A DNA stretch of 64,000 bases from an uncultured Candidatus Nemicrothrix sp. (GCA_964504305.1 CAZDEB010000011.1:1753-65752); one strand, 5' to 3'; numbered from the stretch's first letter, positions 1 to 17,293 are shown. Program-made: numbers and translations. The notes: generated from the letters alone by a model not told the origin.

Positions 1-42
1 CGAGCAAACGAGCGAGGACGAGATTAGGGGCTTCCGTGTTAC

Positions 43-1068
43 TCATGTTGGTGCTATCCTGCCCGGTAGGACGTTAGTCCACCTTCTACACGGGGAGAGC
101 CGTTCCTTCGGGAGCCGCTCTCCCCAGTCACTTTTCCGCCCGAACACCGCTGCCCCGAACGTAGCAGCGGCTTCCGCTTGCATGCCGGGCATGACGTGCT
201 GATAGACGGTCATGGTGAAGGCGATGCTGCTGTGGCCGAGGCGTTCACTGATGACCTTGGGGTGGATGTTCTCCTGGAGCAGGATCGTGGCGTGGGTGTG
301 GCGCAGGTCGTGGAGTCTGATGCGGGGTAGGTCGATCTGGGTCATGAAGCGTTGGAAGGTTTGGATGATGAGGTCGGGGTGGATGGGGGAGCCGTCGGGT
401 TTGGCGAACACGTAGCCGTCGTCGTCTCGCCGGCCGGTGGCCATGCGTTCCTTGAGTTGGTGGCGGCGGTGGCGGCGCAGCATGACGACGGTCCGCGGGC
501 CGAGGTCGATGGTCCGTCGGCTGGATGCGGTCTTGAGGTCGTCTTCGACGAGTTTGTATTCGACCGACACGATCTGTTGGTTGACGGTGAGCCGTGCGGT
601 GTCGAGGTCGACGTTGCGCCACCGGAGTCCGGCGAGTTCGCCGCGGCGCATGCCGGTTGTGGCGCCGAGGAAGTAGAGCGGGTAGAGCTCGTGGTCGGCG
701 ATGGCTGCGAGGAACGTGCGGAGTTGGTCACCGGTCCACACGTTCATGGACCGCCCGGCGCGGCTGATCAATGGCGGGTCGGCGATGTTGGCTACGTTGC
801 GGAAGACGGTGCCTTTGCGGGCGGCGTCGCTGAGGAGATTCACGTGGAGATCGTCGAGGTCTTCCGGCTGGAGTTTCTGGAGTGGGATCACCCCGATGTT
901 GGGGTTGATGTGGAGCCGGATGATGTGTTGGTAGCAGCTCGCGGTGGGCGTCTTGACCCGGGTCCGTATTGAGGTGAGCCACGGCTCGAGCAAGTAGCTG
1001 TTCAGGGCGACCCAGCCAGGGGCCCGGTAGTTGCCGTCGTGCATGTGCTCCACCATCTCGGCCAACAT
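43..1068 (-). CDS. tyrosine-type site-specific recombinase/integrase (phage integrase family)
   Basis: 341-aa ORF. Catalytic-domain signatures are TGMRRGELAGLRW (box I Arg), HDLRHTHATILL (HxxR) and GHSSIAFTMTVYQHV (catalytic Tyr). The frame upstream of the ATG at 1068 has no alternative start before a stop at 1144-1146. Confidence 0.9.
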   Translation of the reverse strand: MLAEMVEHMHDGNYRAPGWVALNSYLLEPWLTSIRTRVKTPTASCYQHIIRLHINPNIGVIPLQKLQPEDLDDLHVNLLSDAARKGTVFRNVANIADPPLISRAGRSMNVWTGDQLRTFLAAIADHELYPLYFLGATTGMRRGELAGLRWRNVDLDTARLTVNQQIVSVEYKLVEDDLKTASSRRTIDLGPRTVVMLRRHRRHQLKERMATGRRDDDGYVFAKPDGSPIHPDLIIQTFQRFMTQIDLPRIRLHDLRHTHATILLQENIHPKVISERLGHSSIAFTMTVYQHVMPGMQAEAAATFGAAVFGRKSDWGERLPKERLSPCRRWTNVLPGRIAPT

Positions 1069-1371
1069 CTTCTCGGCCCGATTGCGAACGGCGCCGGCGG
1101 CGGCTGGCGATGTTGATGTGGCGAAGGTGTTGTGACGTGCGGGTCATGCTGGCTCATGTCGTCTCGCCCGCACCGCCGCCTGTCTGCCGTCTCTTCGGCG
1201 TGGCGGCACGCGGCGCGGAGCAGTCGTCGTTGAACATCTTCTCCGACAGGATCCCGCGGATGCCGGGATGGGATTGCAAGTGCTTGGTGATCGCGGGGCA
1301 AGTGCTTGACTGCTCGTCCTCCTGGACCGATACTATTCACATATCCCCCCAGTCGCTTCGACGGCTGGGTC

Positions 1372-1397
1372 AAGGCCCACCCGTGAGGGTGGGCCTT
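1372..1397. terminator. GC-rich hairpin, probable terminator of the NYN gene (possibly bidirectional)
   Basis: aaggcccaccc-gtga-gggtgggcctt: 11-bp perfect stem with a GNRA-type tetraloop, 18 nt downstream of the minus-strand stop at 1415. On the plus strand it is followed by tttgtgtt. Confidence 0.45.
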
Positions 1398-1414
1398 TGT
1401 GTTGGCGCGTGACG

Positions 1415-2125
1415 TCACCAAGTCTGTGGTTTATGAATCTGCCTGCCCTTGGAGGTGATGACTGGGTTTGGTAGTTGACAGCTGCCGAGGATTTGGTGGC
1501 GGAGTTGGAGCTTGAAGTTGGCAACTTTCGCAAGATGCCTGCTGGTCTCATTGATGCGGTGAGGGTTGACAACACCGACGGTTACTCCCTCGGCTACTGC
1601 AATGCCAATCGCTCCGGCAAGGTCGGAGTCATTCGAAATGACCAGCGCCTTGGTGCAGTTGCCTTTGAAGGTGTCTCGAAGCAAGTGCGATGCGAGATTC
1701 ACATCCGACCCCTTCTCCTCGGTTTTCATCACCCGAATCGACGGCGGGCGATCAAGTTTCCGTTCAGCCATGCGCTGAACGAGGTCCACGATCCGGCTGG
1801 GTCGGACTCGAGGGCGCGTCAGCTCTGACCATTCTCCGGGAGCGATGGGCAGCCATTTCGGATCGCGCCGGAAGTGGCCCCGATGAATCTCGATCAGGGG
1901 GTTTTCCGCTACTGCTCGTAGGAATGCGTGTTGTCGTTGGACGCCGCTGTCATCGGTTCCGTTTGGCTTGATCGGAGCTGTGAAATAGCGGATCTTCGCA
2001 ATTGAGTCGCGCGGGAGCAGTCGCCTACAAAGTGCTTCGTAGTCAAGCCACTTGTGTGGCGTGCCTTTGACGGCGCCGTAGTAGAAGTTGAAGCCATCGA
2101 TGTAGATGATCGTCGCCATGTTCAT
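1415..2125 (-). CDS. NYN (LabA/PIN-like) domain protein, putative ribonuclease
   Basis: MNMATIIYIDGFNFYY... N-terminus, with EEKGSDVNLA and ISNDSDLAGAI acidic motifs typical of NYN domains. Start moved to the ATG at 2125, because the longer ORF to 2347 would overlap hsdM. Confidence 0.75.
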   Translation of the reverse strand: MNMATIIYIDGFNFYYGAVKGTPHKWLDYEALCRRLLPRDSIAKIRYFTAPIKPNGTDDSGVQRQHAFLRAVAENPLIEIHRGHFRRDPKWLPIAPGEWSELTRPRVRPSRIVDLVQRMAERKLDRPPSIRVMKTEEKGSDVNLASHLLRDTFKGNCTKALVISNDSDLAGAIGIAVAEGVTVGVVNPHRINETSRHLAKVANFKLQLRHQILGSCQLPNPVITSKGRQIHKPQTW

Positions 2126-2149
2126 GTCGATGATAGGGCCGTGTGGCGG

Positions 2150-2165
2150 GAGGCGGAGCCGCCTC
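2150..2165. promoter_or_regulatory. 16-bp near-perfect palindrome in the divergent NYN/hsdM intergenic region (possible operator)
   Basis: gaggcgg-ag-ccgcctc lies between the divergent starts at 2125 and 2232. No function can be assigned from sequence. Confidence 0.2.
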
Positions 2166-2231
2166 TTCCTCTGGATCAGGCGCAGCTCCGTGTAATGGAG
2201 CACAATGTCACGACGCTTGGCTACCAAGCGG

Positions 2232-3794
2232 ATGACGAAAGAGGCGATATTGATTACCGGTGACCTGAAGTCGAAGATCGACGCGGTGTGGAACGACTTC
2301 TGGGCGGGTGGCATCTCGAACCCGTTGGAGGTGATGGAGCAACTCACCTACCTGCTGTTCATCAAGGGTCTCGATGAGCAGCAGACCCTGGCCGAGAACA
2401 AAGCCAACCGCACCGGCGAGCCGATCGAGAATCCGATCTTCCCCGAGGGAGTGTTCACTCCCGACGATGCCGCTGTGGGTCGGCCGTATGAGGATCTGCG
2501 CTGGGACCGGTTCAAGAACACCAGCGCCCAGGAAATGTTCACTGTGGTCGACAAGTACGTTTTCCCTTTCCTTGAGCACCGTGCGGCGAACAGCACTCAC
2601 GCCGAGCACATGCGCGATGCCCGGCTCACGATTCCGACTCCGGCGTTGTTGCAGAAGGCGGTCGATGGGCTCGACGCGGTTCCGATGGGGGACCGCGACA
2701 CCAAGGGCGACGTGTAGGAGTACATGCTCTCGAAGATCGCCACTGCCGGGCAGAACGGCCAGTTCCGCACACCCCGCCACATCATCGAGCTGATGGTCGA
2801 GATGATGGCTCCCACCCCGTCGGACATCATCTGTGATCCGGCCAGCGGCACGTGCGGGTTCCTGGTGGCCGCCGGCGAGTACATCCGCGACAACCATCCG
2901 AGCGCTCTTACTGACCCCGCCAAGTCGAAGCATTTCCACACAGCGATGTTCAGCGGCTACGACTTCGACAACACCATGTTGCGCATCGGTTCCATGAACA
3001 TGCAGCTCCACGGAGTGGCGAACCCGGCTATTACCTACCGCGATTCGCTCGCCCAGGACCACGCCGACGACATCGAGTCCTACAGCCTCGTTCTTGCCAA
3101 CCCGCCCTTTGCCGGGTCGCTCGATTACGAAAGCACGGCCAAGGACCTGCTCTCGGTCGTGAAGACCAAGAAGACCGAATTGTTGTTCCTCGCGCTGTTC
3201 TTGCGGCTGCTCAAGCCGGGTGGGCGTGCCGCGGTGATCGTGCCCGACGGCGTACTGTTCGGCTCCACCAAGGCCCACAAGGAACTTCGCCGCATTCTGG
3301 TGGAGGACCAGAAGCTCGACGGCATCGTGTCGCTTCCGTCGGGGGTGTTCAAGCCCTACGCCGGCGTGTCGACAGCCATCTTGTTGTTCACCAAGACCAA
3401 TTCCGGTGGCACCGACCACGTCTGGTTCTACGACCTGCAGGCCGACGGCCGCAGCCTCGACGACAAACGCACCTCGCTCCTCGACGATGACAAGCTCGGC
3501 GCGAAAGCGACGCTGACCGACGAAGAACACGACGATAACAACCTCCCCGACGCGCTCGCCCGCTGGGCCGACCGAGACGGCGCGGAGCTCGAACGGGCCC
3601 GCACCGACCAGAGCTTCTGCGTCCCCAAGGCCGACATCGCCGCCAACAACTACGACCTCAGCATCAACCGCTACAAGGAAATCGTCTACGAAGAAATCGA
3701 CTACCCCGCCCCCGGCGAGATCCTCGACGAACTCGCCACGCTTGAAGAAGAGATTCAAAAGGGCATCGACGACCTCAAGGCCATGCTCGGATGA
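2232..3794 (+). pseudogene. hsdM: Type I R-M N6-adenine DNA methyltransferase subunit HsdM, interrupted by an in-frame TAG at 2715-2717
   Basis: The HsdM N-terminal domain (GDLKSKIDAVWNDFWAGGISNPLEVMEQLTYLLFIKGLDE) occupies 2232-2714. A TAG then falls inside the conserved block TKGDV[*][22 protein letters not shown]. The same frame continues with [10 protein letters not shown] (motif I) and LANPPF (motif IV). 2724-2205 = 519, so both ORF-track pieces share one frame. Confidence 0.85.
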
Positions 3795-4954
3795 AGATGG
3801 CTGCTCTTTCGCAAGTGTGTGAGATCACGATGGGACAGGCTCCGAAAGGTGACACATATAACGACATTGGCGAAGGTCTCCCGCTAATCGCTGGTGCTGG
3901 AGACTTTGGCGATCTCTACCCATCCCCGAAGAAGTTCACCACGGCGAAGGCGGTCCGAAAGAGCGAGCCAGGTGACGTCATTGTCGGGATCCGAGCGTCA
4001 ATCGGCGACAAGGTGCTCGCTGATGACGTTTATTGCCTCGGCCGGGGAGTGGCCGGTCTCCGTGCGGGACCTGGCCTTGACCAGCGGTACCTGTGGAACT
4101 GGGTGACTCATGCCGCACCGACGCTCGCAGCAAAGGGACGCGGTGCAACGTTCTTGCAGGTAAACAAGGCGGACGTCTCGGAGATGGAGATTCCGTTGCC
4201 GCCGATTGAGGAGCAGCGGCGGATTGCGGCAGTGCTCGATGCGGCCGATGCGCTCCGAGCCAAACGCCGCCAGGCCCTCGCCAAGCTCGACACCCTCACC
4301 CAAGCCATCTTCATCGACATGTTCGGCGACCCCGTGGCCGCAGCGACTCGGTTCGGCTGTCTTGAGATGGGGGAGATGGGCAGGATGACGAACGGCCACA
4401 ATTTCTCAGCCGAGGATCGTGGCGATGGAACCGCGGGCATACTCATGCTCGATGTCAAGAACATGTACACGGCGAACGCCCATCCTGACGTGGAGTCTGC
4501 ATATCGGATCTCTGCCGAAGTGCCCGACTCCAAGCAGCTCCAGCCTGGAGACCTCGTCTTTGTTAGGTCGTCGGTAAAGCGAGAAGGCGTTGCGTGGCCT
4601 GTGCACTTCACCGGGCACAGCGAACCAGTCGCACTCTGTGGTTTCTTGATCCGGTTACGTCTGCATACGGAGATGGCCCGGCTGTACACGCCGGAGTACC
4701 TTGTCCACTATCTGAGACAACCCTCAGTGCGGATGGCGGCAGTAGCGAGTGCGGGCCAAGTGGCAATCACAAATGTCAGCCAGAAGCGGCTAGGCCAGCT
4801 CCGAATTCCCAAAGCTCCAATGGCGACGCAGGTTCGATTCAGCGAGCGAATCTCAAAGATCTACTCCCTGCGGGAGTTCCCTGCCCGATCCTTGGAAGAG
4901 GCCAACAACCTGTTTGCTTCGCTTCAGCAGCGGGCGTTTCGGGGGGAGTTGTGA
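3791..4954 (+). CDS. hsdS: Type I R-M specificity subunit HsdS (two target-recognition domains)
   Basis: 387 aa. The central conserved spacer is [48 protein letters not shown] and the C-terminal conserved helix is ...[18 protein letters not shown] overlap with the hsdM stop. Confidence 0.85.
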
Positions 4955-7900
4955 GTTCGTCTCAGTTCTTGTTTCTCGAGGCTGAGTTTGGTGATCTGTT
5001 TGTCGTGGCGGAGTGGGCGGAGCGTCATGCGTTGTCGGATCCGGGGCCAGCGGTGATTTATGCCCGTAAGGCGCTGGAGTCCGGGGTGAAGTGGGTTTAC
5101 GCCCATGATCGTTCGTTGCCTGCGCCGTATGAGTCGAAGCTCAATGCGTATCTGAATGAGCCGGCGTTCAAAGCCCTGGCTGACGGCCGGGTCTCCAATG
5201 TGGCGAAGAAGGTTCAGTTGGCGGGCAATCGGGCGGTTCATGAGTCGAAACCGCCGACGAAGCTGGAAGCGGTCGAGGTAATCTCGGCGTTGTTCCAGGT
5301 GTGTTTCTGGCTGGCGTTCACCTATGGCCGGGCTGCCAAGCCTGATCCGGGGGTGAAGTTCGACCCGAAGCTGCTGGTGTCTGCGGGCCGGGCTGAAAAG
5401 GCGTCGTTGAAGGAGCGCCAAGAGCTGCAGGAGCAGCTTGAGCGGCAGGTTGAGGAGACTGAACTTGCCCGGCTGCGGGCGGCGGAGGCGTCGCGCACGA
5501 TCGCTGAGCTGGAAGCCGAGCACGCCGCGTTGTTGGCGGATGTGGCGGCGGCGAAGCGGGAGGCTGAGAAGATCCCGGTCGGGGTCCACGATTGGTCGGA
5601 GTGGGAGACCCGCCAGTTTAAGATCGATGCGATGCTGGCCGAAGCAGGCTGGACGCTGAGCGAGGAGCGTGACCGCGAGTTCGAGGTGCACGGGATGCCC
5701 TCGGATTCGGGTGTGGGTTACGCCGACTATGTGCTGTGGGGCGACGATGGCTTGCCGTTGGCGGTGGTTGAGGCCAAGAAGGCGATGGTGTCGCCTACGA
5801 CCGGACAGCAGCAGGCGAAGCTCTACGCGGATTGTCTAGAGAAGATGACCGGGCAGCGGCCCGTCATCTTCTACTCCAACGGCTACGAGCACTGGCTGTG
5901 GGACGACACCCGTTACCCGCCCCGGCCGGTGCAGGGGTTCTTGACCAAGGACGAGTTGGCGCTGTCGATCCAGCGGCGAACCTCCACGGTGTCGCCGGGG
6001 TCGCTCGACATCAACGACAAGGTCGTCGAGCGGTACTACCAGCATCGGGCGATCCGGGCGATCACCGAACATTTCGAGAACGACAAGCAACGCAAGGCGT
6101 TGTTGGTGATGGCTACCGGTGCTGGCAAGACCCGCACCGTCATCGCGTTGGTTGATTTGTTGATGAGGGCCAACCTGGTGAAACGGGTGTTGTTCTTGGC
6201 TGATCGCACTGCATTGGTGAAACAGGCGATCGGGGCGTTCAAGTCTCACTTGCCGGATTCGGCGCCGGTCAATCTGGTGACCGAAGGCAACGAGGACGGC
6301 CGGGTGTACGTGTCGACGTATCAGACGATGGTCGGCAAGATCGATGAGTACCGCAACGACGGCACCCGCCGTTTCGGGGTCGGGCATTTCGATCTGGTGG
6401 TGATCGACGAAGCTCACCGGTCGGTGTACCGCAAGTACCGCGGGATCTTCGAGTATTTCGATTCGTTGCTGGTCGGCTTGACCGCCACGCCGAGGGATGA
6501 AATCGGCCGTGACACCTACGGACTGTTTGATCTCGAGACCGGGGTGCCCACGGATGCCTACTCCCTTGATGAGGCGATCAAGGACGGTTTCTTGGTGCCG
6601 CCCCGTGGTGTGTCGGTGCCGCTCAAGTTCTTGCGAGAGGGGATCCGCTACGACGACCTTTCCGAGGACGAACAGGCCGACTGGGAGGGGCTTGATTGGG
6701 GAGAGGACGAGGATGGCCACGAACTCGACCCACCTGACGAGGTCGGCGCCGCTGCCCTCAACAAGTTCCTGTTCAACGAAGACACCGTGGACAAGGTCCT
6801 CGAACGGCTGATGGTTGACGGCATCAAGGTCGCCGGCGGCGACCGGCTCGGCAAGACCATCATCTTCGCCAAGAATCAGCGCCACGCCGAGTTCATCTAC
6901 CAGCGGTTCATCGCCAATTACCCGCATCTCGACAACGGCAATTTCGCCCGGGTGATCACCCACGACGTGAAATACGCGCAGAGCCTGATCGACGACTTCT
7001 CGATCAAAGACAAGGCACCCCACATAGCGATTTCAGTCGACATGCTCGACACCGGGATCGATGTGCCTGAATGCGCAAACTTGGTGTTCTTCAAGCTGGT
7101 GCGATCAAAGACCAAGTTCTGGCAGATGCTCGGCCGCGGCACCCGCCTGTGCCCCGACCTGTTCGGCCCCGGTGACGACAAGACCTGTTTCAATGTCTTC
7201 GACTTCTGCCAGAACCTCGAATACTTCAGCCAACCGCTCGTACCCGCAGACAAGGCGGGCTCAGCGCCGATCGGCGAACAGATCTTCAAAGCCCGTCTGG
7301 AGCTGATCCAGACATTCGACTCGATCCAGAACCACGGCAACGAGCGGGCCGAAATCGCCGGTTTGCTGCACGACGCGATCGCGTCGATGAACGAGAGCAA
7401 CTTTCTCGTACGTCCCCACCTGCAGTTGGTTGAGAAATTCCGCGATGCTGATGCATGGGAGTCGGTGTCGGTCGGCGATCTCGCCGCACTGGCCGACCGG
7501 GTCGCTGCGCTTCCCGCACAGCTCGAACCTGAGCCGGAAGAAACGAAGCGGTTCGACATGTTGCTGCTCAGCTCTCAGCTCGGGGTGCTGCGTGGTGAAC
7601 CATTCGAGCGTCAGCGTCGCAAGGTGATTGCCATCGCCGGCGCGTTGGATGACCAGCAGGCGATCCCGGCGATCAAACAGCAGCTCGAACTCATCATCGA
7701 CATCCAATCCGACGAATGGTGGGTGGACGTCAATTATCAGATGCTCGAAGACGTGCGAAAGAAGCTGCGTCTTCTGGTCCCGCTCATCGAACGGTCCAAG
7801 AAGAGCATCATCTACTCCGACTTCGAAGACCAGATCGGCACTGGCAAAGTGATCGATATACCCGGCACCAGCGGGGAAGCCGGCAGCACCGAGTTCGTTC

Positions 7901-8364
7901 AGTTCCGTAGGAAGGCCGAGCGCTTCCTCCAAGAGAACCTGGGTGAGGCGGCGATCGCCAAGGTCCGATCCGGTGCGCCGCTGACGCCCGACGACATCGC
8001 TGACCTTCAGCGGATCCTCGTCGCGGCGGGTATAGGCGACGAGGGTTCCTTCGCCGAAGCCAGCAAGAAGGCAGGCAACTTCGGTCTATTCATCCGATCG
8101 CTCGTTGGCCTCGATCGTGGCGCCGCCAAGGCCGCGTTCGCTGGTTTCCTCGACGAGAAACGCTACGGCCGCAACCAGATCGAGTTCGTCAACATGATCA
8201 TCGACGAACTCACCGACCGAGGCGTGGTTAAAGCCCGCCGAGTCTACGAGACGCCTTACATCGGTCTGGCCCCCGAAGGCCCCGAGAAGATCTTCGTGAA
8301 AGCGGACCTTGACCGGCTATTCGAGACGATCAAGTCGCTGTCTGCTGTTGGGTCGGAATCGTGA
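4951..8364 (+). CDS. hsdR: Type I restriction endonuclease subunit HsdR (EcoEI-like) with N-terminal DUF4145 domain and coiled coil
   Basis: GTG at 4951 overlaps the hsdS stop (GTGA). DUF4145-like N-terminus (..AGNRAVHESKPP..), nuclease core GYADYVLWGDDGLPLAVVEAKK, and SF2 motifs LVMATGAGKTRT, VVIDEAHRS and GLTATP. Long C-terminal EcoEI-R-type tail. The 4594-4950 part of the track ORF lies inside hsdS and was trimmed. Confidence 0.85.
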   Translation: MSSSQFLFLEAEFGDLFVVAEWAERHALSDPGPAVIYARKALESGVKWVYAHDRSLPAPYESKLNAYLNEPAFKALADGRVSNVAKKVQLAGNRAVHESKPPTKLEAVEVISALFQVCFWLAFTYGRAAKPDPGVKFDPKLLVSAGRAEKASLKERQELQEQLERQVEETELARLRAAEASRTIAELEAEHAALLADVAAAKREAEKIPVGVHDWSEWETRQFKIDAMLAEAGWTLSEERDREFEVHGMPSDSGVGYADYVLWGDDGLPLAVVEAKKAMVSPTTGQQQAKLYADCLEKMTGQRPVIFYSNGYEHWLWDDTRYPPRPVQGFLTKDELALSIQRRTSTVSPGSLDINDKVVERYYQHRAIRAITEHFENDKQRKALLVMATGAGKTRTVIALVDLLMRANLVKRVLFLADRTALVKQAIGAFKSHLPDSAPVNLVTEGNEDGRVYVSTYQTMVGKIDEYRNDGTRRFGVGHFDLVVIDEAHRSVYRKYRGIFEYFDSLLVGLTATPRDEIGRDTYGLFDLETGVPTDAYSLDEAIKDGFLVPPRGVSVPLKFLREGIRYDDLSEDEQADWEGLDWGEDEDGHELDPPDEVGAAALNKFLFNEDTVDKVLERLMVDGIKVAGGDRLGKTIIFAKNQRHAEFIYQRFIANYPHLDNGNFARVITHDVKYAQSLIDDFSIKDKAPHIAISVDMLDTGIDVPECANLVFFKLVRSKTKFWQMLGRGTRLCPDLFGPGDDKTCFNVFDFCQNLEYFSQPLVPADKAGSAPIGEQIFKARLELIQTFDSIQNHGNERAEIAGLLHDAIASMNESNFLVRPHLQLVEKFRDADAWESVSVGDLAALADRVAALPAQLEPEPEETKRFDMLLLSSQLGVLRGEPFERQRRKVIAIAGALDDQQAIPAIKQQLELIIDIQSDEWWVDVNYQMLEDVRKKLRLLVPLIERSKKSIIYSDFEDQIGTGKVIDIPGTSGEAGSTEFVQFRRKAERFLQENLGEAAIAKVRSGAPLTPDDIADLQRILVAAGIGDEGSFAEASKKAGNFGLFIRSLVGLDRGAAKAAFAGFLDEKRYGRNQIEFVNMIIDELTDRGVVKARRVYETPYIGLAPEGPEKIFVKADLDRLFETIKSLSAVGSES

Positions 8365-9248
8365 CTGTCTCGCAGAAGCCGCTTGGTACGTCGATCCGCA
8401 TTTTCCTTGCCGATGGTGAGGCGGACGGAGTGTGGGTGGTTGAGAAGAGCAACTGGACTGGCAAGGCGCTGATGGCCCCTCGCACGCGTTACCGCGATCT
8501 TCGCTCCCGGCCTGATCTTGACGGCCCGGGGGTGTACGTGCTCGTCGGCCCGACCGATTCTGGGTACCCGCCCCAGCGGGTCTACATCGGCGAGACGGAC
8601 GATCTCCCGGGCCGACTCGACAGCCACAACAAGAACAAGGACTTCTGGAACCGCGCCGTCGTTTTCACCAGCAAAGACGCGAACCTCAACAAGGCGCACA
8701 TCCGATACCTCGAACACAGACTCATCGGCTTGGCAACGGCAGCAAAGCGAGCCGAGATCGAGAACGGCAACCTCGGGTCGATGCCGCCGCTCTCCGAAGC
8801 CGACACTGCGGAGGCAGAGTCGTTCCTGGCCGAGATGCTGCTGATCTACCCCGTCCTCGGCATCCACCTGTTCAAGAAGCCGGACGAACAGCCATCGAGT
8901 TCTGTTCGTCTCGGCCTAGCGGGAAAAGGCGCGAATGCTGAGGGCACCGAGACCGCCGACGGTTTTGTCGTCCACGCCGGATCTCTGGCCCGTCTCGACG
9001 AAGTCCCATCGATACATGCCTACGCAATAGAGATGCGCAAAGCCATGAAGGAGAGGGGGTTGCTGGTCGAGGAGAACGGCCATCTTCGCTTCACCGATGA
9101 CCACCTGTTCGGTTCGCCGTCGACCGCGGCGACGGTGGTGCTCGGACGAAGTGCCAACGGAAGGGTTGAGTGGAAGACGGCCGCTGGTCAGACCCTCAAG
9201 CAACTCCAGACAGACCTGACCGGCGAGGTCAGCCCAGAGGATGGATGA
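8361..9248 (+). CDS. GIY-YIG nuclease-family protein with DUF4357-like C-terminal domain
   Basis: GVYVLVG...RVYIGETDDLPGRLDSH...IRYLEHRLI gives the GIY / YIG / Arg / Glu pattern. The C-terminal part (FVVHAGS...LFGSPSTAATVVLGRSANGRVEWK) resembles DUF4357. The GTG start overlaps the hsdR stop (GTGA). Confidence 0.7.
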   Translation: MTVSQKPLGTSIRIFLADGEADGVWVVEKSNWTGKALMAPRTRYRDLRSRPDLDGPGVYVLVGPTDSGYPPQRVYIGETDDLPGRLDSHNKNKDFWNRAVVFTSKDANLNKAHIRYLEHRLIGLATAAKRAEIENGNLGSMPPLSEADTAEAESFLAEMLLIYPVLGIHLFKKPDEQPSSSVRLGLAGKGANAEGTETADGFVVHAGSLARLDEVPSIHAYAIEMRKAMKERGLLVEENGHLRFTDDHLFGSPSTAATVVLGRSANGRVEWKTAAGQTLKQLQTDLTGEVSPEDG

Positions 9249-10489
9249 GCCGGGGGATGGATGAGTATGCGGCGGCTTCGTCGTTCGGCTGGCTTGATTT
9301 CGATTCTGCGGCGTCGGAGCGGGTCAGCACGCTGCTGAGAGCGCTCGAACAACCGGGAACGCTCGACCCGCTCGGCTTCTCGGTGATTAGGGATCCCATC
9401 TCGGGGATGCTCGCCCCTGGTACTTCCACCATCCAGACACGGCTGCGCTATTTCATGTTTCTGCCATGGATCTTCCAGGGGATCGACCGCGACAGGGTCG
9501 CGCCGTCTCGGTTCGCCCGCCGGCTACGTGACGACGAGGCGAAGCTCATCGAGTGTCTCCGTCACCTTGGCCCCAGCCATGGCGTGCAGGGCTACTCGGC
9601 GGGTCGGAATCTCCAGCGGATGCCCAGCGAGGCCTATTGGAGCGGGCTTCTCTCATGGGGGATCCGACGAGTTGACGTTTCTATAGCGGACTACGGCCGT
9701 CGGCTCGGAGCGATGGGCCGACTGTCCACCCAGCGAGATGACGACGGCAACCCAACCGAGCGTGCCGTGCAAACCTGGGCGTCGATCCCCGACCCGCCGG
9801 ATCGTTTCCTCTCGGAGGAGATTGCGTTCGATCTGACACAGGCTGAGGCGACTCTGATCATTGATCAGATCCGACGACATCACCCATCATCGTTACTTGC
9901 CTCAGGGTGTAGAAATCCGGCCGCGACCGCGCAGGCACGGATGCCATGGGACATCGACCGGTCTTTGTTGAGCGGCGAGCTGCAATCTGTCATCCGTCAC
10001 GCGCGGGCGGCATCGGAGCTCACGATTGGGCCTCAACTTCTCTACAACCTCCTCCTCGCTGAACGGGCAAGGGCTGAACTCGGATGGGACACATCAGAGC
10101 TCCGCGACGACGTGCATGCTCAGCTCGACGACTGGGCGGTGCTTGTCGAAAACCGCCACATCGGCCTTCAGTCCTGGGCGTCAGACATCGGGGAGTTCTG
10201 GGCGATCCTCGACGCTCGGGCGCCGGTCAATAAGTGGAGTCGTGACTTCATCACTGAGATCATTGTGCGGGCGGCGCAAGACCCGCGCGGGTTCGTTCGC
10301 GACAAAGTCGTGCATCAGCTCATCCGAGATCGCGAGATTCGCCTGAAATCGAATCGGGCCCGGCTTGGGCCTCTGAGCGCGTTGGAGAACTGGAATCAGC
10401 AGCCCTTCGGCGGTCAACTGGTCTACCGCTGGCCGATCTGTCGGACCTACCTGGAGGACCTGGCCGTAGCGCTCGGGTCGGCGGGTTGA
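9245..10489 (+). CDS. conserved hypothetical protein, DUF6361-like (family assignment from memory)
   Basis: 414 aa from the ATG at 9245 (ATGA overlap with the upstream stop). The N-terminal block SSFGWLDFDSAASERV...PGTSTIQTRLRYFMFLPWIF resembles the family usually annotated DUF6361. No catalytic motif recognised. Confidence 0.55.
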   Translation: MSRGMDEYAAASSFGWLDFDSAASERVSTLLRALEQPGTLDPLGFSVIRDPISGMLAPGTSTIQTRLRYFMFLPWIFQGIDRDRVAPSRFARRLRDDEAKLIECLRHLGPSHGVQGYSAGRNLQRMPSEAYWSGLLSWGIRRVDVSIADYGRRLGAMGRLSTQRDDDGNPTERAVQTWASIPDPPDRFLSEEIAFDLTQAEATLIIDQIRRHHPSSLLASGCRNPAATAQARMPWDIDRSLLSGELQSVIRHARAASELTIGPQLLYNLLLAERARAELGWDTSELRDDVHAQLDDWAVLVENRHIGLQSWASDIGEFWAILDARAPVNKWSRDFITEIIVRAAQDPRGFVRDKVVHQLIRDREIRLKSNRARLGPLSALENWNQQPFGGQLVYRWPICRTYLEDLAVALGSAG

Positions 10490-12291
10490 TGCTCCAGCCA
10501 TCCAACCGCCTCACTCTCATAGACGCCATGCGCCCACCGCCCGGCTACGGCTTCGGCGAGGCAATGGCGGTGACATTCACGCTCGACCTGCGGGCCTTGC
10601 TCGCAGCGCCCGCTGCATTTGTGTTCGGTCAGGCCGGCGCCGACGTCCAATCTGATGACCAAACAGCGGAACCGATCGAGCTGCTTCATGCGATCCGATC
10701 CCACTCTGATCACATCACGGTGTTCTGCCAAGCCGGCGAGATCGGGCTACCACCATCGAAACGAGTCTTCGCCTTCCTCGAGCAGTCGGTCGTGCCCGTC
10801 ACCGCACCCCGCGGCGGAGTCGTCCATCCGAAGATCTGGGTGCTGCGCTACGAGTCCATCAGCGACCCGGGGGTTTCGACGCTCCGGGTTCTGTGCTCCA
10901 GCCGCAATCTCACCTTCGACGCAAGCTGGGACACTTTGCTGCGGCTCGATCAAACAGACTCACCGTCGGGGTGTGATCTGACACCGTTGGTCGCGTTGTT
11001 CGACGGTCTCACCGAGCGCGCAACATCGCCGATCAGCGAGGCCCACGCCGCACGGGTAAACCGCTTGGGCATGATGCTCCAGGCGGCCAAGTTCGCCCGG
11101 CCACCCGGCACGGATGACCTGCGTTTCCATGTGATGGGGTTCGACGATCCAGAACCTCTGTTGCCCTCTGGCGCCGACCGGTCGCTGATCATTTCGCCTT
11201 TCGTGAGCAACGGCTTCTTCACCCGGATACACAGCGGCGGTGTCAGTGAGCTGGTGAGCCGTCCTGAGAGTCTCGATCAGCTCGAGCCTGCGGTGCGTGA
11301 AGCGATCGGCTCCATTTACGCGTTCGATGATGGCAGCAACCCCGACTTGACCGATGGGGAGGATTCTCTTTCGTTTGGTGACCCCGGCCGTCCACTGAGA
11401 GGGCTCCACGCCAAGGTCTTCGCATTCGAGACCGGCAACCGCGCGGCTGTGTTCGTTGGTTCGGCGAATGCAACCGGGGCGGCGTTTCGGAACAACGTCG
11501 AGGTGCTCGTGGAGATGACCGGCCCCAAGACCACCCTCGGGATCGATCGACTGTGCGGCGGAACCGACGACGAGGTCGGTCTACGGGCACTGTTCCAGAC
11601 ATACATGGGCGGATCAGTCGCGGTCGATCCGGACGACTCGACGCTCGACGGGGCGAGACGCCGGCTGGCACAGCTGGTGCTCGACGGTTTCGTGGCCGAG
11701 ACGACCAGTGGTTGGGAGGTCACCTACAAGTCGGACTCGCTCGTCGAACTACCAGACGGCATCACGGCGACCTGCTGGCCGCTGTCCAACGCCGGGAACC
11801 TCCAGCCAGTGGATTCCGGCAAGTCCCTATGTGTCACATTCCAGACCACGCTCGAATCGATGAGTGGTTTCCTGGCGATGAAACTGACCCGTGACGAAAC
11901 GGAGGCCACAACCGGGTTTGTGCTGCCGGTGACGTTGCACGGGGTTCCTGCTGATCGCGACCGCATGCTTCTCAAGGCGCTTGTCGGCAACGCCGAGCGG
12001 TTCTTCCGCTACCTCCTGTCGCTTCTCGACGAAAACCCCGCCGGCATGGAATTGGTCGACGCGATCGATCAGATGACGAGCGACACCGGCCACTCCGATC
12101 GACAAAGCGGCTTTTACCTTCCGGTGTTGGAGAATCTTCTGCGGAGCCTGCGCCGCGACCCGGCGAAGCTCATCTCCGTGCATCCGTTGGTGATGGACCT
12201 CCACGGCGACGACGCTCTGCCCGAGGGTTTTATGGAACTCTGGGCTCCAATCCATCAGATTGCCGTCGAAGCGATGAGGGCCGAGACGTGA
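10489..12291 (+). CDS. phospholipase D (HKD) superfamily protein with two HKD-like motifs, putative nuclease
   Basis: First motif is VVHPKIWVLRY...LCSSRNLT. Second motif is GLHAKVFAFETGNRAAVFVGSANATGAAF. The ATG at 10489 shares one nt with the upstream TGA (10487-10489); a TTG at 10486 is also possible. Confidence 0.75.
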   Translation: MLQPSNRLTLIDAMRPPPGYGFGEAMAVTFTLDLRALLAAPAAFVFGQAGADVQSDDQTAEPIELLHAIRSHSDHITVFCQAGEIGLPPSKRVFAFLEQSVVPVTAPRGGVVHPKIWVLRYESISDPGVSTLRVLCSSRNLTFDASWDTLLRLDQTDSPSGCDLTPLVALFDGLTERATSPISEAHAARVNRLGMMLQAAKFARPPGTDDLRFHVMGFDDPEPLLPSGADRSLIISPFVSNGFFTRIHSGGVSELVSRPESLDQLEPAVREAIGSIYAFDDGSNPDLTDGEDSLSFGDPGRPLRGLHAKVFAFETGNRAAVFVGSANATGAAFRNNVEVLVEMTGPKTTLGIDRLCGGTDDEVGLRALFQTYMGGSVAVDPDDSTLDGARRRLAQLVLDGFVAETTSGWEVTYKSDSLVELPDGITATCWPLSNAGNLQPVDSGKSLCVTFQTTLESMSGFLAMKLTRDETEATTGFVLPVTLHGVPADRDRMLLKALVGNAERFFRYLLSLLDENPAGMELVDAIDQMTSDTGHSDRQSGFYLPVLENLLRSLRRDPAKLISVHPLVMDLHGDDALPEGFMELWAPIHQIAVEAMRAET

Positions 12292-15200
12292 ACCCGCCAA
12301 TCGACATGGAGGAGGTTCTGTCGGGCCTGAAGGACTTCCAACGATGCAGTGCGGAGTGGGTGTTCGAAAGAATGTTCGATCAACAAGACGCCGCGGTGCG
12401 TTTCCTGGTCGCCGACGAAGTCGGGCTGGGAAAAACCCACGTTGCCAAAGGTGTGATTGCCCGGGTCATCGATTATCTCGAGCGCACCGGCGACGAGCGT
12501 CACGACATCGTCTACGTCTGCTCCAACGGTGCCATCGCCCGTCAGAACCTGAGGAAGCTCGCACCCAACGGTGTTCAGCCGATCGACAGCGTCGAACGTC
12601 TAACGATGCTTCCCCTCGCGCAACTCAATGAAGGGGGCTCTGGCACTCACGGCATGAACCTGTTGGCTATCACCCCGGGCACATCGCTTGCCTTCGGGAG
12701 GAGCACCGGCCGGTTCGAGGAGCGAGTGCTCGCCTACACGTTCTTACGGGAGGTCTGGGGCCCCGAAGCGTTCCCCGAACGCGCCCGCTGGATCTTTTGG
12801 GAAGGGGTCAACAAAGAAAAAGGGGATCGGAGGCTACGAGATCACTCCAGACGACAGAGGGACAAGATCCAAGCCCATGTTGCCGCCTTTCGCCGGACGC
12901 TGAAGGAGATCGATCGGCAGCGTCGAGAACTCGGCGAACCAACTAGTCGAATCATGTTCAACCGTCTCGTCAAGGGACTGAAATGGCAGCGGAACTTTCC
13001 CAAAGAACTGGGCGCTTCTAGAAGAGAGTTCATCGGCGAGATTCGCCGGGTGATGGCGATGGTCGGAATCGCCATGCTCGAACCCGACCTTGTGATACTC
13101 GACGAGTTTCAACGGTTCAAGAACCTGCTCGATCCCGACGCCGAAGACTGGTCCGCCGATCTCGCCCGCAGGCTCTTCACCCACCTTGATAGCGAAACTG
13201 GCCGGCCCACCCGAACGCTGTTGTTGTCGGCGACGCCGTATCGCATGTTCACGACCTCCGATGAGACCGACGGCGACCACTACGCCGACTTCGTCGACAC
13301 CTGTTCGTTCCTCTTCGACGACAAAGCGAAGGTAGTCAAACTCGAGAACCAGTTTCGTCTGCTTCGGTTGGCGCTCACCGACGGCACCGGCGATTCGGCA
13401 GCCGAGACAGTCTGTAAGAGCATCGAGTCGCTGCTGCGTACCGTGATGGTTCGAACCGAACGCCTTGCAGCCACGCCAGATCGAGACGGCATGTTGAGCG
13501 AGACCGACACCACAGTGCCGGTCAAAGAAATCGATCTGCGTTCCTACATGCGGCTCAGCGACCTCGCCGAATCGATCGGCCAGCACCAACCAACCGAGTT
13601 CTGGAAATCAAGCCCGTTCCTGTTCAACTTCATGGAGAAGTACCAACTCAAGGAAGCCCTCGAACAAGCCATCATCGGCGGCGATCTCCATGATTCCGAA
13701 GCGCTCGAACCCGGGCCTGGATTGCTCAAATGGGATGAGATCGAACGGTACGAACACCTCGACCCCCAGAACGGCAGGCTGCGCTGGCTCATCGATGATC
13801 TCGAACAGCATCACGCGTTCGATCTGCTTTGGATGCCTCCTTCGCTGCCCTACTACCGCGCCGACACTGTGTACGAGCAAGAGAGCTCGATGAAGTTCAC
13901 CAAGCGTCTGCTCTTCTCGGGGTGGGCGGTCGTGCCCAAAGTTGTGTCGACCGTCGTCAGCTACGAAGCCGAACGTCACGCCTTCGCTCTGGGACGCCGT
14001 CACCAGTACTCCGACGACTACAGCAAACGCGGGGGACGAAGACTCGACTTCCGGCTCGAAAATCGGCGACCCGCCGCAATGACGGCTTTCCTGTTCATCT
14101 GGCCCAGCCCTACGCTCGCGGCACTCGGAGACCCGAGGCCGTCACCAAGTGAAACAGCAACAGCGGAGTCGGTGCTGACACGAGCACGTGACCGTCTCAG
14201 GGAACCTCTTCGCGAGATCACTTCTGGAGCGCCGACAGATGGACCCGTCGATCAACGCTGGTATTGGGCCGCGCCCCTCTTGCTCGACCGCATCCATCAT
14301 CCCAGAGTGATCAACGACTGGTTCGTCACGAGCGGCTCGGAGTTGACCTGGGGCGAAGACCTGGACGGCTCAGGATTCGAGCGGCATGCACGTGAGGCAC
14401 GGGATCTCCTCCGAGACAAGGTGGAGGCGCTTGGCCGGTGCCCTGAAGATCTGTTGGAGGTTCTCGCCGAGGCGGCGGTGGGAGGGCCCGCTCAATGTGC
14501 ATTGAGGGCGCTGTCAACGGTGACCGGCGTCGAACTCGGTGATCCCGAATTGCAACCGGGGGCAGCGAGGGTGTCGTGGGGTTTTCGTAGTTTCTTCAAC
14601 GCCCCCGACGTCACGGCGATAGTCGTCGGCCAATCCAGTGTTGATGATGGGAGCACCGGCAGCCGGACCCCATTCTGGCGAGAAGCGATACGGCACAGCA
14701 TCGGCGGCAACCTGCAATCGGTTCTCGACGAACACGTTCACATCCTTCGAGACTGGCTCGGGTTCATCGACATTGAACATTCCGGTCGCCGTACCGAGGC
14801 AGCTCAGGCCATCGCCAACCGGTTGACCGGCTCGTTGCAGGTACGCACATCTACGTTTCGTGTCGACCTGCCAAGCGGAAGCTCGAACCACTACAAACTC
14901 GACTATCGACGGATGCGCAGCAGATTCGCGGTGGCGTTCGGCAACCAAAAACTGGAGACAGGTGGCCAAGCGCGGGTGGAGTCGGTTTCTGCAGCATTCA
15001 ACTCGCCGTTCTGGCCGTTCGTTCTCACGACGACATCGATCGGTCAAGAAGGCCTCGACTTCCACCTCTGGTGCCACGCAGTAGTCCACTGGAACCTGCC
15101 GAGCAATCCGGTGGATCTCGAGCAGCGCGAAGGCCGAGTTCACAGGTTCAAGGGCCACGCTGTCCGAAAAAACATCGCCGCGACAATCGGACCCGACGCA

Positions 15201-15539
15201 AGCTCATCTGACTCAGCGGACATTTGGGAGCAGATGTTCAACACGGCTGCCGACGGCCGAAGTCCCTCAGAGTCAGAGATGATGCCCTACTGGGTCTTCA
15301 ACAAGGGGCCGGCCAAGATAGAGCGTCACGTGCCGGTGCTCCCCTTCAGCCGAGACTCTGCCGTGCTGCCGCGCCTACGGAAATCGCTGGCCACCTATCG
15401 CCTTGCATTCGGGCAACCACGACAAGAAGAGCTGTTGGAGTTCCTCGGTGAGCACCACGGTCCCGACGAGCTGCAAGCCCTGAGCGCCAAACTTCGTATC
15501 GACCTGTCGCCCCCCGACGGGTTCCGTTCCTCCGTGTGA
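12288..15539 (+). CDS. SNF2-like superfamily-2 helicase-related protein (1083 aa)
   Basis: FLVADEVGLGKTHVAKG (motif I), LVILDEFQRFKNLL (motif II, SNF2-like DExx..KN), LLLSATPYR (III), TTSIGQEGLDFH (V) and LEQREGRVHRFKGH (VI). A long insertion lies between the two RecA lobes. The GTG start overlaps the PLD stop (GTGA). Confidence 0.8.
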   Translation: MNPPIDMEEVLSGLKDFQRCSAEWVFERMFDQQDAAVRFLVADEVGLGKTHVAKGVIARVIDYLERTGDERHDIVYVCSNGAIARQNLRKLAPNGVQPIDSVERLTMLPLAQLNEGGSGTHGMNLLAITPGTSLAFGRSTGRFEERVLAYTFLREVWGPEAFPERARWIFWEGVNKEKGDRRLRDHSRRQRDKIQAHVAAFRRTLKEIDRQRRELGEPTSRIMFNRLVKGLKWQRNFPKELGASRREFIGEIRRVMAMVGIAMLEPDLVILDEFQRFKNLLDPDAEDWSADLARRLFTHLDSETGRPTRTLLLSATPYRMFTTSDETDGDHYADFVDTCSFLFDDKAKVVKLENQFRLLRLALTDGTGDSAAETVCKSIESLLRTVMVRTERLAATPDRDGMLSETDTTVPVKEIDLRSYMRLSDLAESIGQHQPTEFWKSSPFLFNFMEKYQLKEALEQAIIGGDLHDSEALEPGPGLLKWDEIERYEHLDPQNGRLRWLIDDLEQHHAFDLLWMPPSLPYYRADTVYEQESSMKFTKRLLFSGWAVVPKVVSTVVSYEAERHAFALGRRHQYSDDYSKRGGRRLDFRLENRRPAAMTAFLFIWPSPTLAALGDPRPSPSETATAESVLTRARDRLREPLREITSGAPTDGPVDQRWYWAAPLLLDRIHHPRVINDWFVTSGSELTWGEDLDGSGFERHAREARDLLRDKVEALGRCPEDLLEVLAEAAVGGPAQCALRALSTVTGVELGDPELQPGAARVSWGFRSFFNAPDVTAIVVGQSSVDDGSTGSRTPFWREAIRHSIGGNLQSVLDEHVHILRDWLGFIDIEHSGRRTEAAQAIANRLTGSLQVRTSTFRVDLPSGSSNHYKLDYRRMRSRFAVAFGNQKLETGGQARVESVSAAFNSPFWPFVLTTTSIGQEGLDFHLWCHAVVHWNLPSNPVDLEQREGRVHRFKGHAVRKNIAATIGPDASSSDSADIWEQMFNTAADGRSPSESEMMPYWVFNKGPAKIERHVPVLPFSRDSAVLPRLRKSLATYRLAFGQPRQEELLEFLGEHHGPDELQALSAKLRIDLSPPDGFRSSV

Positions 15540-15566
15540 ACCCCGGCCAGGAACTACGGTCGGGGG

Positions 15567-16793
15567 ATGGCGTTTCGCAGGCGTAACCGAGATCAGAAAT
15601 CGGACAACGTTGAGATCGTGGCTAACGGGCAGGGGCTCATGGTTCACGGTTCGTCTGGAGCTGTTTCCACTTTTGCGGCCGGGTTGGCCAACGCGGTGGG
15701 CGAGTCGTCGGGGCAGGCCCGTCGAATGGCAGCTGACGGGCTGGCGGTGGCTGGTGGTCTGGGTGCCCAGATAAAGACCCACCGCGAATACTTCGAGTTC
15801 TCGCCGCGCACGGCCGAGCTGCTGCGCAAGCACGGAGCCATACCGACAGGAGACGGCCATTTCCACACGTTCGTGCGGTCGCCGGACGGGCGCATCGCCG
15901 GCAATCTCGAATGGAATAACGTTGACCTCAACCCGGAGCAGGCGCTCGCCTTCCAGACCGCAACCGCGCAGCTCGCTCTGCGTGCCGCCACCAAGGATCT
16001 GGCTGCCGCCATCGAACGGGTCGAGGGCAAGGTCGACAAGCTCATATTGCTCACTCGTGCCGAACGGCTCGGCGCGGCGTTGGGTGACCGTGTCACCCTG
16101 CAGGCTCTCGCCGAGCACTCACGAGAACGCGGCACCATGTCCATGACCGATTGGTCGACCGTCGACAGTCTTGGGGCGCTGATCCCGCGTGATATCGCGG
16201 CTCTGTGTGCTTATGTCCAGCAAGAGATCAACGAGCTCGATAGCAAAGCGTTCGTGCGAACCAGGTCCTCTGAGCTCAAGAAGCTGACGGATGATCTTCT
16301 GAGCGAGTCACTCGAATTGCTGCTGGTGGTCGAGCAGAACTACATGCTGTGGCAGGAGATTCGGATAGCGCAGGTCGCCACCAACGAGCCCGCGGCACTC
16401 GCGGCGACCGTCGCGGATGCGCGGGCCCAACTCGACGCGGTCGCCATGGAAGACCAGTGGCTCATCGATTCGATTCAAACCGCAGCGGCAGAGCTGTTGG
16501 AACCGACCGGGATGGAGGGATTCTTGCCGCTGGAACGGCGGCGGCTTCGTCAGCGTGGCGAGGAGCTCAATGAGTTAATCGGGTGGTTCGCCGGGCAACG
16601 CCAGCTCGATGCCGACGAACTCGTAGCCAGATATCCGACGCTGACGGAGTCCCTCTCCAAGGTCGGCGATGTCGCTGCCGAGCGCGCTAAGGATGTGGGC
16701 GGCGCCATCCAGTCCGTCGTTAGACGCAACCAGGGGCACAGGGAATCTTCACCGGGGTCCGATGAGCCCGATGACGACCGCGATGATTCCTGA
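15567..16793 (+). CDS. hypothetical protein (408 aa, helical/coiled-coil-looking, acidic C-terminal tail)
   Basis: Long ORF on the operon strand, 27 nt after the helicase stop, preceded by a gggg purine run. No motif recognised. Ends ...SPGSDEPDDDRDDS. Confidence 0.55.
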   Translation: MAFRRRNRDQKSDNVEIVANGQGLMVHGSSGAVSTFAAGLANAVGESSGQARRMAADGLAVAGGLGAQIKTHREYFEFSPRTAELLRKHGAIPTGDGHFHTFVRSPDGRIAGNLEWNNVDLNPEQALAFQTATAQLALRAATKDLAAAIERVEGKVDKLILLTRAERLGAALGDRVTLQALAEHSRERGTMSMTDWSTVDSLGALIPRDIAALCAYVQQEINELDSKAFVRTRSSELKKLTDDLLSESLELLLVVEQNYMLWQEIRIAQVATNEPAALAATVADARAQLDAVAMEDQWLIDSIQTAAAELLEPTGMEGFLPLERRRLRQRGEELNELIGWFAGQRQLDADELVARYPTLTESLSKVGDVAAERAKDVGGAIQSVVRRNQGHRESSPGSDEPDDDRDDS

Positions 16794-17107: not shown

Positions 17108-17163
17108 ACCCCACGCCGCCCAGGGCGTCCGAAGAGAACCACGGTGCCGCTGTTTGCGAAAAG

Positions 17164-17247: not shown

Positions 17248-17293
17248 TTAACTTGCCGCAAGGGTAGCGACCGTGGACGATATCCTCGCAACT

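Follow-up and report, generated by a model that had tools for sequence, protein, structure and literature searches.

Does a gap-free run of genes that joins a Type I restriction-modification (R-M) operon to four accessory genes encode one composite defence machine, or several systems packed side by side? The question is raised by a stretch of 64,000 nucleotides (nt) from an uncultured Candidatus Nemicrothrix sp. (GCA_964504305.1 CAZDEB010000011.1:1753-65752; hereafter the window), in which an earlier note, made from the sequence alone, described seven genes at 2232-15539 as chained by stop/start overlaps and as much more than a canonical Type I system. We find that the four accessory genes belong to two known modules, PDC-S14 and Azaca, and the array most likely consists of three independent known or candidate defence modules, R-M, PDC-S14 and Azaca, packed head to tail beside a tRNA-Leu gene and each working by its own mechanism. 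We regard it as an ordinary, if compact, defence island in which known kinds of system are newly combined, rather than as a new composite machine.

Composition and layout of the array

The genes hsdM, hsdS and hsdR are all present, recognised by PADLOC as MTase_I, Specificity_I and REase_I and by their Pfam domains (Table 1). The translation of hsdR contains the PD-(D/E)xK nuclease motif ADYVLW...VVEAKK and the superfamily 2 (SF2) ATPase motifs ATGAGKT and VIDEAH. Among the Type IB models, it matches Pfam EcoEI_R_C above the cut-off (E 2e-16) and NCBIfam restrict_EcoAI at 264.6 bits, below the cut-off of 550. The first module would be a Type I R-M system of the EcoAI/EcoEI-like kind, with the gene order hsdM-hsdS-hsdR. 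In Type I systems, an HsdM2S1(R2) complex methylates or restricts at a bipartite site.

Table 1. Position, strand and support of the features in and around the array
Feature	Position	Strand	Support or remark
Tyrosine recombinase/integrase	43-1068	-	NCBIfam XerA/XerC/XerD-type partial matches, E 2e-15 to 4e-11, far below curated cut-offs
NYN-domain gene (PADLOC HEC-09 candidate), divergent from hsdM	1415-2125	-	Pfam NYN E 4.2e-7; PADLOC HEC-09 E 6.4e-36
Divergent intergenic region	2126-2249	.	Sole non-coding gap upstream of the chain; fold z-score -2.3
hsdM 5' part (HsdM_N)	2250-2717	+	Pfam HsdM_N E 2.9e-15; PADLOC MTase_I PDLC03021 positions 3-149/491
hsdM 3' part (N6-adenine methyltransferase domain)	2724-3794	+	Pfam N6_Mtase E 2.3e-54; PADLOC MTase_I PDLC03021 positions 153-489/491, E 1e-144
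hsdS, specificity subunit	3791-4954	+	PADLOC Specificity_I PDLC03107 full length, E 9.5e-76
hsdR, restriction/translocase subunit	4951-8364	+	PADLOC REase_I PDLC03047 E 1.2e-166; Pfam ResIII, HSDR_N, Helicase_C, EcoEI_R_C, N-terminal DUF4145
PDC-S14	8361-9248	+	PADLOC PDLC04923 E 1.7e-102, residues 8-286; Pfam DUF4357 E 2.7e-21
16-nt tandem duplication at the S14/zacA junction	9234-9249 / 9250-9265	+	CCAGAGGATGGATGAG / CCGGGGGATGGATGAG
zacA (DUF6361)	9257-10489	+	PADLOC ZacA E 5.8e-100; Pfam DUF6361 E 3.3e-54
zacB (PLD-like nuclease, two HxK motifs)	10489-12291	+	PADLOC ZacB E 7.7e-144, full length
zacC (SF2 helicase-type ATPase)	12288-15539	+	PADLOC ZacC 1041 bits, E 0, residues 6-1075 against model positions 5-1016/1019
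orf408	15567-16793	+	408-codon open reading frame, 27 nt downstream of zacC
Small DUF3024-like open reading frame, 77 amino acids	16874-17107	+	PF11225; weak PADLOC PDC-S43 E 2.7e-7; between orf408 and tRNA-Leu
tRNA-Leu	17163-17247	-	ARAGORN; Rfam tRNA 55.8 bits

The gene directly after hsdR, both in the window and in a sister locus, encodes a PDC-S14 protein. This sister locus, L087, is the contig with the closest ZacA relative (87% identity) and shares a nucleotide identity of ~82% with the window. In PDC-S14, the N-terminal GIY-YIG domain is weakly matched (Pfam E 6.9e-4, 20.3 bits against a cut-off of 22.6) and the C-terminal domain is DUF4357/RAMA. The PDC families were put forward as candidates on the strength of their location inside BREX, DISARM and Type I R-M systems (10.1101/2024.01.29.577857; PMC10855318), and DUF4357 is also found fused to GmrSD- and McrB-type enzymes (PMC4619093; PMC11090510). 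The second module would be a GIY-YIG/DUF4357 nuclease of the kind typically nested in Type I R-M operons.

The last three genes, adjacent and on the same strand, have the order of Azaca, a system that was reportedly first described by Millman et al. 2022. They share with it full-length hidden Markov model (HMM) matches, both HxK/GSxN motifs of the phospholipase D (PLD)-like ZacB, the Walker A (GLGKT) and Walker B (DEFQ) motifs of ZacC, and the 1-nt and 4-nt overlaps seen in most family members. The ZacB residues H113-P-K115, R139-N140, H307-A-K309 and G324-S-A-N327 are invariant in 10 homologues (down to 31% identity) and are present here; a PDB sequence search with ZacC returned no match. Azaca was reported to provide more than 1e6-fold protection against T4, and purified Bacillus ZacABC (BmZacABC) alone preferentially degrades T4 DNA with no other factor needed, in a reaction that depends on all three Zac proteins, the ZacB nuclease site and the ZacC Walker A motif (10.1101/2025.07.10.664194). 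The third module would be such an ATP-dependent PLD-nuclease complex, of which one studied homologue prefers T4 DNA, which is hypermodified. The window differs from other Azaca loci in two respects: the genes lie directly behind Type I R-M and PDC-S14 without an intergenic gap, whereas the majority of Azaca loci are preceded by a gap of their own and by other neighbours, and the start region of ZacA holds a tandem duplication of 16 nt. Together, Pfam and PADLOC bear out the domains named in the earlier note (HsdM/S/R, GIY-YIG, DUF6361, PLD-like and SF2 helicase), and, as an inventory of parts, its tally of three nuclease folds and two motors is right.

The genes form a single array on the + strand, without intergenic space, from ~2250 to 15539, and all six stop/start motifs on which the idea of a chain was built are present (ATGA at 3791-3794, GTGA at 4951-4954, GTGA at 8361-8364, ATGA at 9245-9248, TGATG at 10487-10491 and GTGA at 12288-12291). 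As overlaps between genes, five of the six are credible and ATGA 9245 is doubtful, since homologues place the ZacA start at ATG 9257. The hsdS/hsdR junction is strong, with the best Shine-Dalgarno pairing of the array (-9.4 kcal), a GTGA that is kept in L087 and a REase_I model that aligns from residue 3. At the hsdR/S14 junction, where the GTGA is also conserved in L087, GTG 8361 is the first start codon of the S14 open reading frame (ORF) and later starts are incompatible with the HMM alignment. The overlap of hsdM and hsdS is plausible, the alternative hsdS start at ATG 3797 leaving a 2-nt gap. Within Azaca, the 1-nt overlap of ZacA and ZacB is shared by 57 of 78 loci, with an 8-nt overlap in another 8, the 4-nt overlap of ZacB and ZacC recurs in 63 of 73, and zacC GTG 12288 has a Shine-Dalgarno sequence that is missing from ATG 12306, the start picked by some gene callers.

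The doubtful junction is the one between S14 and zacA. ZacA homologues start at MxxYAPASS or 1-5 residues ahead of it in 20 of 23 cases, the other 3 being called with long N-terminal extensions, and this start aligns with ATG 9257 of the window; ATG 9245 is an in-frame alternative. The 16-nt duplication lies between the S14 stop and ATG 9257. In L087, the junction has a single copy and an 8-nt overlap (ATGGATGA), and therefore the duplication appears to have uncoupled S14 and zacA in the window, producing the apparent ATGA at 9245. An 8-nt gap is thus the more likely form of this junction and a 4-nt overlap the less likely one.

How unusual is such a run? A start codon that gives a 1- or 4-nt overlap is available at 9 of the 28 same-strand junctions (32%) elsewhere in the window, a baseline drawn from gene calls by GC content at third codon positions (GC3), with hsdS entered by hand and some minus-strand junctions approximate. 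If junctions were independent, a run of six would arise by chance with a probability of ~1e-3, but tight overlap packing is the ordinary operon style in this high-GC genome. The overlaps inside modules (M/S, S/R, ZacA/B and ZacB/C) would reflect the usual translational coupling within one complex's subunits, and we read the hsdR-S14 and S14-ZacA junctions as lineage-specific compaction. The stoichiometric co-production of HsdM/S/R and the accessory proteins proposed in the earlier note goes further than this, as overlaps imply coupling, not stoichiometry.

The single transcript proposed there fits what we found at the junctions: no terminator-like site lies at any of them, such sites are fewer than in shuffled sequence, and the sole promoter-like match of the array (9833-9861, inside zacA) compares with 3.0 expected, although scans by E. 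coli-type consensus are weak evidence for this phylum. The same kind of scan found no consensus promoter in the divergent intergenic region (2126-2249), which is the presumed promoter region of the array; transcription would start there, and the array from 2250 onward is probably a single transcription unit. The chain at 2232-15539 holds up except for the doubtful S14/zacA junction and a broken hsdM (see below), and the array extends beyond its proposed end, with orf408 following on the same strand 27 nt after zacC and probably forming the last large gene of the unit. The hairpin after zacC (15541-15565) is no more stable than shuffles (z -0.86), and we rejected it as a terminator on this ground.

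Linkage of the modules in other genomes

We scanned 80 ZacA loci, one genome per species and up to 10 kb on each side. The order ZacA-ZacB-ZacC is kept in every locus that extends far enough. An HsdM-like gene lies within 10 kb of ZacA in only 3 of the 80 loci (L009, L077 and L086) by tblastn with the window HsdM, a search that is reasonably sensitive, as HsdMs of other families were found at 29-32% identity. PADLOC points to the same three loci, with REase_I matches to 3 of the 107 large ORFs located in the 5 kb ahead of ZacA, and S14 occurs near ZacA in L077 only. The R-M systems of these three loci belong to other families (MTase_I PDLC03031 and 03019; REase_I PDLC03040) and lie 1-3 kb from ZacA. 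The other upstream neighbours come from mixed defence families (PDC-S01, PbeA, AbiLi, GajB, AriA and BrxH), which indicates that Azaca behaves as a member of defence islands, and on two plasmids, Cronobacter pESA3 and a Halomarina plasmid, Azaca stands alone. S14 homologues, by comparison, are in or beside Type I R-M gene clusters, without Azaca, in 3 of the 4 plasmid contexts sampled. Based on the plasmid contexts and the 80-locus scan, we conclude that S14 travels with R-M systems and that Azaca is an independent cassette usually found elsewhere. Of the 80 Azaca loci, 77 have no HsdM-like gene within 10 kb.

One of the three loci deserves a description of its own. In L077 (210-16457), from a metagenome-assembled genome of a Methanotrichaceae archaeon, a Type I R-M system (M, S, R) is followed by a 229-amino-acid (aa) ORF, PDC-S14 (E 1.8e-101), ~1 kb of sequence and ZacABC.

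The adjacency is not unique to the window, as the seven-gene chain recurs, in one sister lineage only. There, on L087, a minus-strand NYN gene is followed by hsdM-orf311-hsdS-hsdR-S14-ZacA-ZacB-ZacC, with junction overlaps of 4, 4, 4, 4, 8, 1 and 4 nt, and hsdM is intact (514 aa, with GDVYEYML). Between the window and L087, the ratio of nonsynonymous to synonymous divergence (dN/dS) is 0.07-0.18 per gene at a dS of 0.55-0.94, which indicates purifying selection on all genes. The two hsdS genes (3791-4954 in the window, 3171-4280 in L087) are alike only in their central 147 nt (94%), and therefore both target-recognition domains have been exchanged. The additional gene of L087 (2239-3174), unannotated and 311 aa long, stands between hsdM and hsdS and opens with ATGAAG, as does the hsdS of the window. 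Upstream of the next closest ZacA (L088, 61%) lie a DrmC-like PLD gene and a GIY_YIG_2 gene, and R-M is absent. Judged from these loci, the fused array is confined to a narrow clade.

Interruption of hsdM and rival readings

Although hsdM had been counted as one gene, an in-frame TAG at 2715-2717 divides it. The gene likely starts at TTG 2250, with the Shine-Dalgarno sequence AAGAGG ahead of it; ATG 2232 and ATG 2205 are also in frame, and homologues begin M-I/L-T-G-E-L-K. The TAG (GDV-stop-EYML) replaces a Tyr that is conserved in homologues (DTKGDV-Y-EYML) and falls exactly at the boundary between HsdM_N and N6_Mtase, so that model positions 150-152 alone are lost. The uninterrupted HsdM chain of N-terminal, catalytic and C-terminal regions that an intact system has is therefore missing here. 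Four assemblies carry the same TAG (the window, L103, L126 and L127), among them copies set apart by a synonymous single-nucleotide polymorphism (SNP) close to it; the stop is therefore genuine, and this population is fixed for it. A 516-codon ORF antisense to hsdM (2208-3758, minus strand) was taken as a shadow ORF typical of GC-rich DNA, because the + frame has domain matches and a GC3 of 0.81-0.86.

The change from TAC to TAG yields TAGGAGTACATG, in which the stop is followed by AGGAG and then, 6 nt beyond the TAG, by ATG 2724, which encodes the Met of EYML. The Shine-Dalgarno pairing at ATG 2724 amounts to -6.8 kcal, with a short AGGAG-ATG spacing of 2-3 nt. Restart at this codon is plausible, and polarity on the downstream genes should therefore be small. 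A quasi-palindrome or repeat-templated origin of the change was dropped, as it breaks the local TGTAC..GTACA symmetry (by eye).

Could the chain or the TAG stem from a chimeric metagenome assembly across a conserved hsdM segment? Four near-identical contigs stop inside hsdM, at window positions 2768, 2786 or 2879, which at first pointed to a chimeric join, and the hsdM motif region has kept its DNA sequence across many unrelated metagenome contigs. However, these breaks are accounted for by a second haplotype (L103 1-2087 and L126 1-3020), which matches the window from 2258 onward and has a different left flank, with RNase PH, Ham1 and EamA genes, an NYN gene cut to 16 codons and no integrase in the flank shown. 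Moreover, L087, L126 and L127 span the region independently, the NYN-hsdM synteny is also found in L087, and the TAG is identical in all four assemblies, two haplotypes with a differing SNP next to it among them. We therefore rejected a chimeric origin for either the chain or the TAG and consider it barely conceivable. The second haplotype carries an added frameshift in the N-terminal half of hsdM, and in L103 the gene is truncated at window position 2911.

In independent lineages with only 60-75% identity to the window, a stop again takes the place of this Tyr codon (TAG three times, TAA once). In L099 (74% nt identity) the TAG lies at ~1194-1196 in hsdM orientation and the remainder of the gene is intact; L115 has a TAG at 3730-3732 plus a second stop, L116 a TAA at 3402-3404 plus a frameshift, and L117 a TAG at 3872-3874. 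The protein fragment P0180, read from protein alone, ends at KGDV, the site of this Tyr. Another contig, L124, carries a TAG at 3698-3700, nine codons upstream of the Tyr site (IPM-stop-DRDTKGDVYEYML), together with a frameshifted hsdR (5979-6799) and an adjacent integrase. In two further proteins, P0147 and P0152, the HsdM N-terminus is fused in frame to an HsdR-like extreme C-terminal tail (APEGP...LF...), and such fusions would imply that the R-M core has been deleted in other lineages. Decay of this hsdM subfamily seems common. The recurrent stops at the Tyr codon could reflect a hotspot of mutation or a split that is tolerated, or they could be an ascertainment effect. It should be noted that the hsdM searches were biased to fragments that hold the whole N-terminal domain, so the recurrence may in part be such an effect; the protein search with the N-terminal fragment covered short fragments (<280 aa) exclusively and gives no unbiased truncation-site rate, and a search with the C-terminal part found 6 N-truncated forms among 119 non-self matches.

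We lean towards an R-M module that is inactive or impaired (r-m-) in this population. Its loss would be harmless, because HsdR needs the methylase core, and S14 and Azaca would remain expressed despite the TAG, because translation can restart at ATG 2724, 6 nt downstream. As for the age of the lesion, a low dN/dS relative to L087 in both parts of hsdM (0.15 in the N-terminal half, 0.065 in the 3' part) and mostly synonymous SNPs in hsdR argue against old decay, and the extra frameshift of one haplotype argues for decay in progress. The same data can be turned against an impaired module: neither the hsdM halves nor hsdS and hsdR show a sign of relaxed selection, the latter two being undamaged in every haplotype, where their SNPs are mostly synonymous, and R-M may therefore still function as a split enzyme. 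In that event, the N-terminal domain (~155-170 aa) and the catalytic part (356 aa, from a restart at ATG 2724 via AGGAG) would be made separately and R-M would be active, or an N-truncated HsdM would be used, which we regard as possible but rather doubtful. A working split is favoured by a stop exactly at the domain boundary, a local sequence that offers stop, Shine-Dalgarno sequence and ATG in turn, dN/dS values like those of the other genes and the return of the stop to one codon in L099, L115, L116 and L117 (and at the end of P0180). The further lesions of related genes (the second stop of L115, the frameshift of L116 and the truncation in L103) and the added frameshift of the L126/L103 haplotype speak against it, as do the TAA of L116, which creates no Shine-Dalgarno sequence, and the short AGGAG-ATG spacing in the window.

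An interrupted hsdM with all other genes intact fits independent modules better than one obligate complex. An integrated machine, in which HsdMSR, S14 and ZacABC would be produced together and cooperate physically or by a shared signal, is highly improbable in our view. A model for it exists in the anticodon nuclease PrrC, which is functionally tied to the Type I R-M system EcoprrI and responds to a block of the Type I complex; a block of this kind might likewise set off Azaca or S14. PrrC itself is almost exclusively R-M-embedded (10.1101/2024.01.29.577857). Several of our results weigh on the side of integration and against three separate modules: two lineages have retained the chain without gaps under purifying selection, across a dS of ~0.55-0.94; the order R-M, S14, Azaca is also found in the archaeal L077, where ZacA is 33% identical and the R-M family is different; and R-M and Azaca became adjacent at least three further times (L009, L077 and L086), which could hint at selection for the combination beyond island clustering. 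Yet in these three loci the modules are 1-3 kb apart and the R-M families differ, nearly all Azaca loci have no HsdM-like gene nearby, S14 is found with R-M and without Azaca, ZacABC is biochemically self-sufficient on T4 DNA (10.1101/2025.07.10.664194), and Azaca is intact here beside an interrupted hsdM. On balance, the claim of a physically integrated machine is not sustained by this evidence, the module order of L077 being the one hint for it. A selected, co-regulated unit of three layers is also improbable; it would direct Type I against unmodified DNA and Azaca against hypermodified escapers, with S14 as an R-M-linked backup, and the Tyr stop with its own restart would be a reversible or tolerated switch on the R-M layer that leaves the downstream layers unsilenced. 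What speaks for this reading is that the module order recurs in the archaeal L077 and that stops at the same codon occur in several independent lineages.

Relation to known systems and the surrounding island

Several known arrangements resemble the three-module array in part. Type I R-M systems with embedded accessory genes, such as EcoprrI-PrrC and the PDCs for which the concept of 'guilt-by-embedding' was described (10.1101/2024.01.29.577857), share with it an hsdM-hsdS-hsdR operon with a tightly packed small nuclease gene. They differ in that S14 here follows hsdR instead of lying between hsd genes, and in that hsdM is interrupted; a PADLOC scan detected no PrrC homologue among the array proteins. 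A second parallel is offered by immigration-control regions. In E. coli, hsdRMS is accompanied by mcrBC and mrr, which combines restriction of unmodified DNA with modification-dependent nucleases. The array likewise sets a Type I system against unmethylated DNA beside Azaca, whose studied homologue prefers hypermodified T4 DNA, and it too lies in a variable region with an adjoining tRNA gene and an integrase at the far end. Its modules, however, are in one overlap-linked array and not in separate operons, and the preference for modified DNA is known from the homologue. With DISARM, the array shares a PLD-like protein, an SNF2/SF2-type helicase and a methyltransferase in one cluster, and there are weak local matches of DrmC on ZacB (E 1e-4) and of DrmD on ZacC (E 3e-12), proteins whose ZacB and ZacC matches are full-length. 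The methylase here, an HsdM, belongs to a Type I system together with HsdS and HsdR, DrmB (DUF1998) has no match among the ten proteins scanned, and DrmA has one weak local match, in the helicase C-terminal motif region of ZacC (E 5.1e-9, residues 911-957). We rejected a DISARM-like composite, given the missing DrmB and the weak and local matches of DrmA, DrmC and DrmD.

The array is one more example of how defence systems cluster and can compact into a single operon-like array, which will not surprise a specialist. Annotations should name the accessory genes PDC-S14 and Azaca and mark hsdM as interrupted. The array also offers a natural test case for co-regulation or synergy of co-transcribed unrelated defence modules, and for a possible complementation of Type I restriction by Azaca against modified phages. 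The nonsense mutations at the Tyr codon of hsdM may be the more original lead; if they prove to be a tolerated split or a switch, they would bear on how Type I systems are safely turned down in bacteria.

The genes on either side suggest an integrated island, as the array is bracketed by an integrase and the NYN/HEC-09 gene on the left and by tRNA-Leu on the right. A divergent NYN neighbour is also present in L087; HEC-09 gave no defence against the phages tested (10.1101/2024.01.29.577857). On the right, orf408 has no Pfam, PADLOC or NCBIfam match and a marginal PHROG match (E 0.0089). Its family comprises 266 cluster representatives at E<=1e-3 and 77 at 1e-30; it is present in every near-identical contig that reaches that far and absent from the 80 Azaca loci, and it may be an unrecognised defence-island gene. 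The tRNA-Leu gene, the sole match in an Rfam scan of positions 1-18000, probably marks both the insertion site and the right-hand limit of the variable region, and a ClpP gene lies beyond it. No att-like direct repeat of the tRNA-Leu 3' end was found within the window, the repeats seen being short chance matches, and the left edge of the island probably lies beyond position 1. Alternative haplotypes are without the left part of the region and join instead to the EamA, RNase PH and Ham1 genes. The nearest relatives of ZacA and HsdM are mostly from Acidimicrobiia, a placement taken from homologue names.

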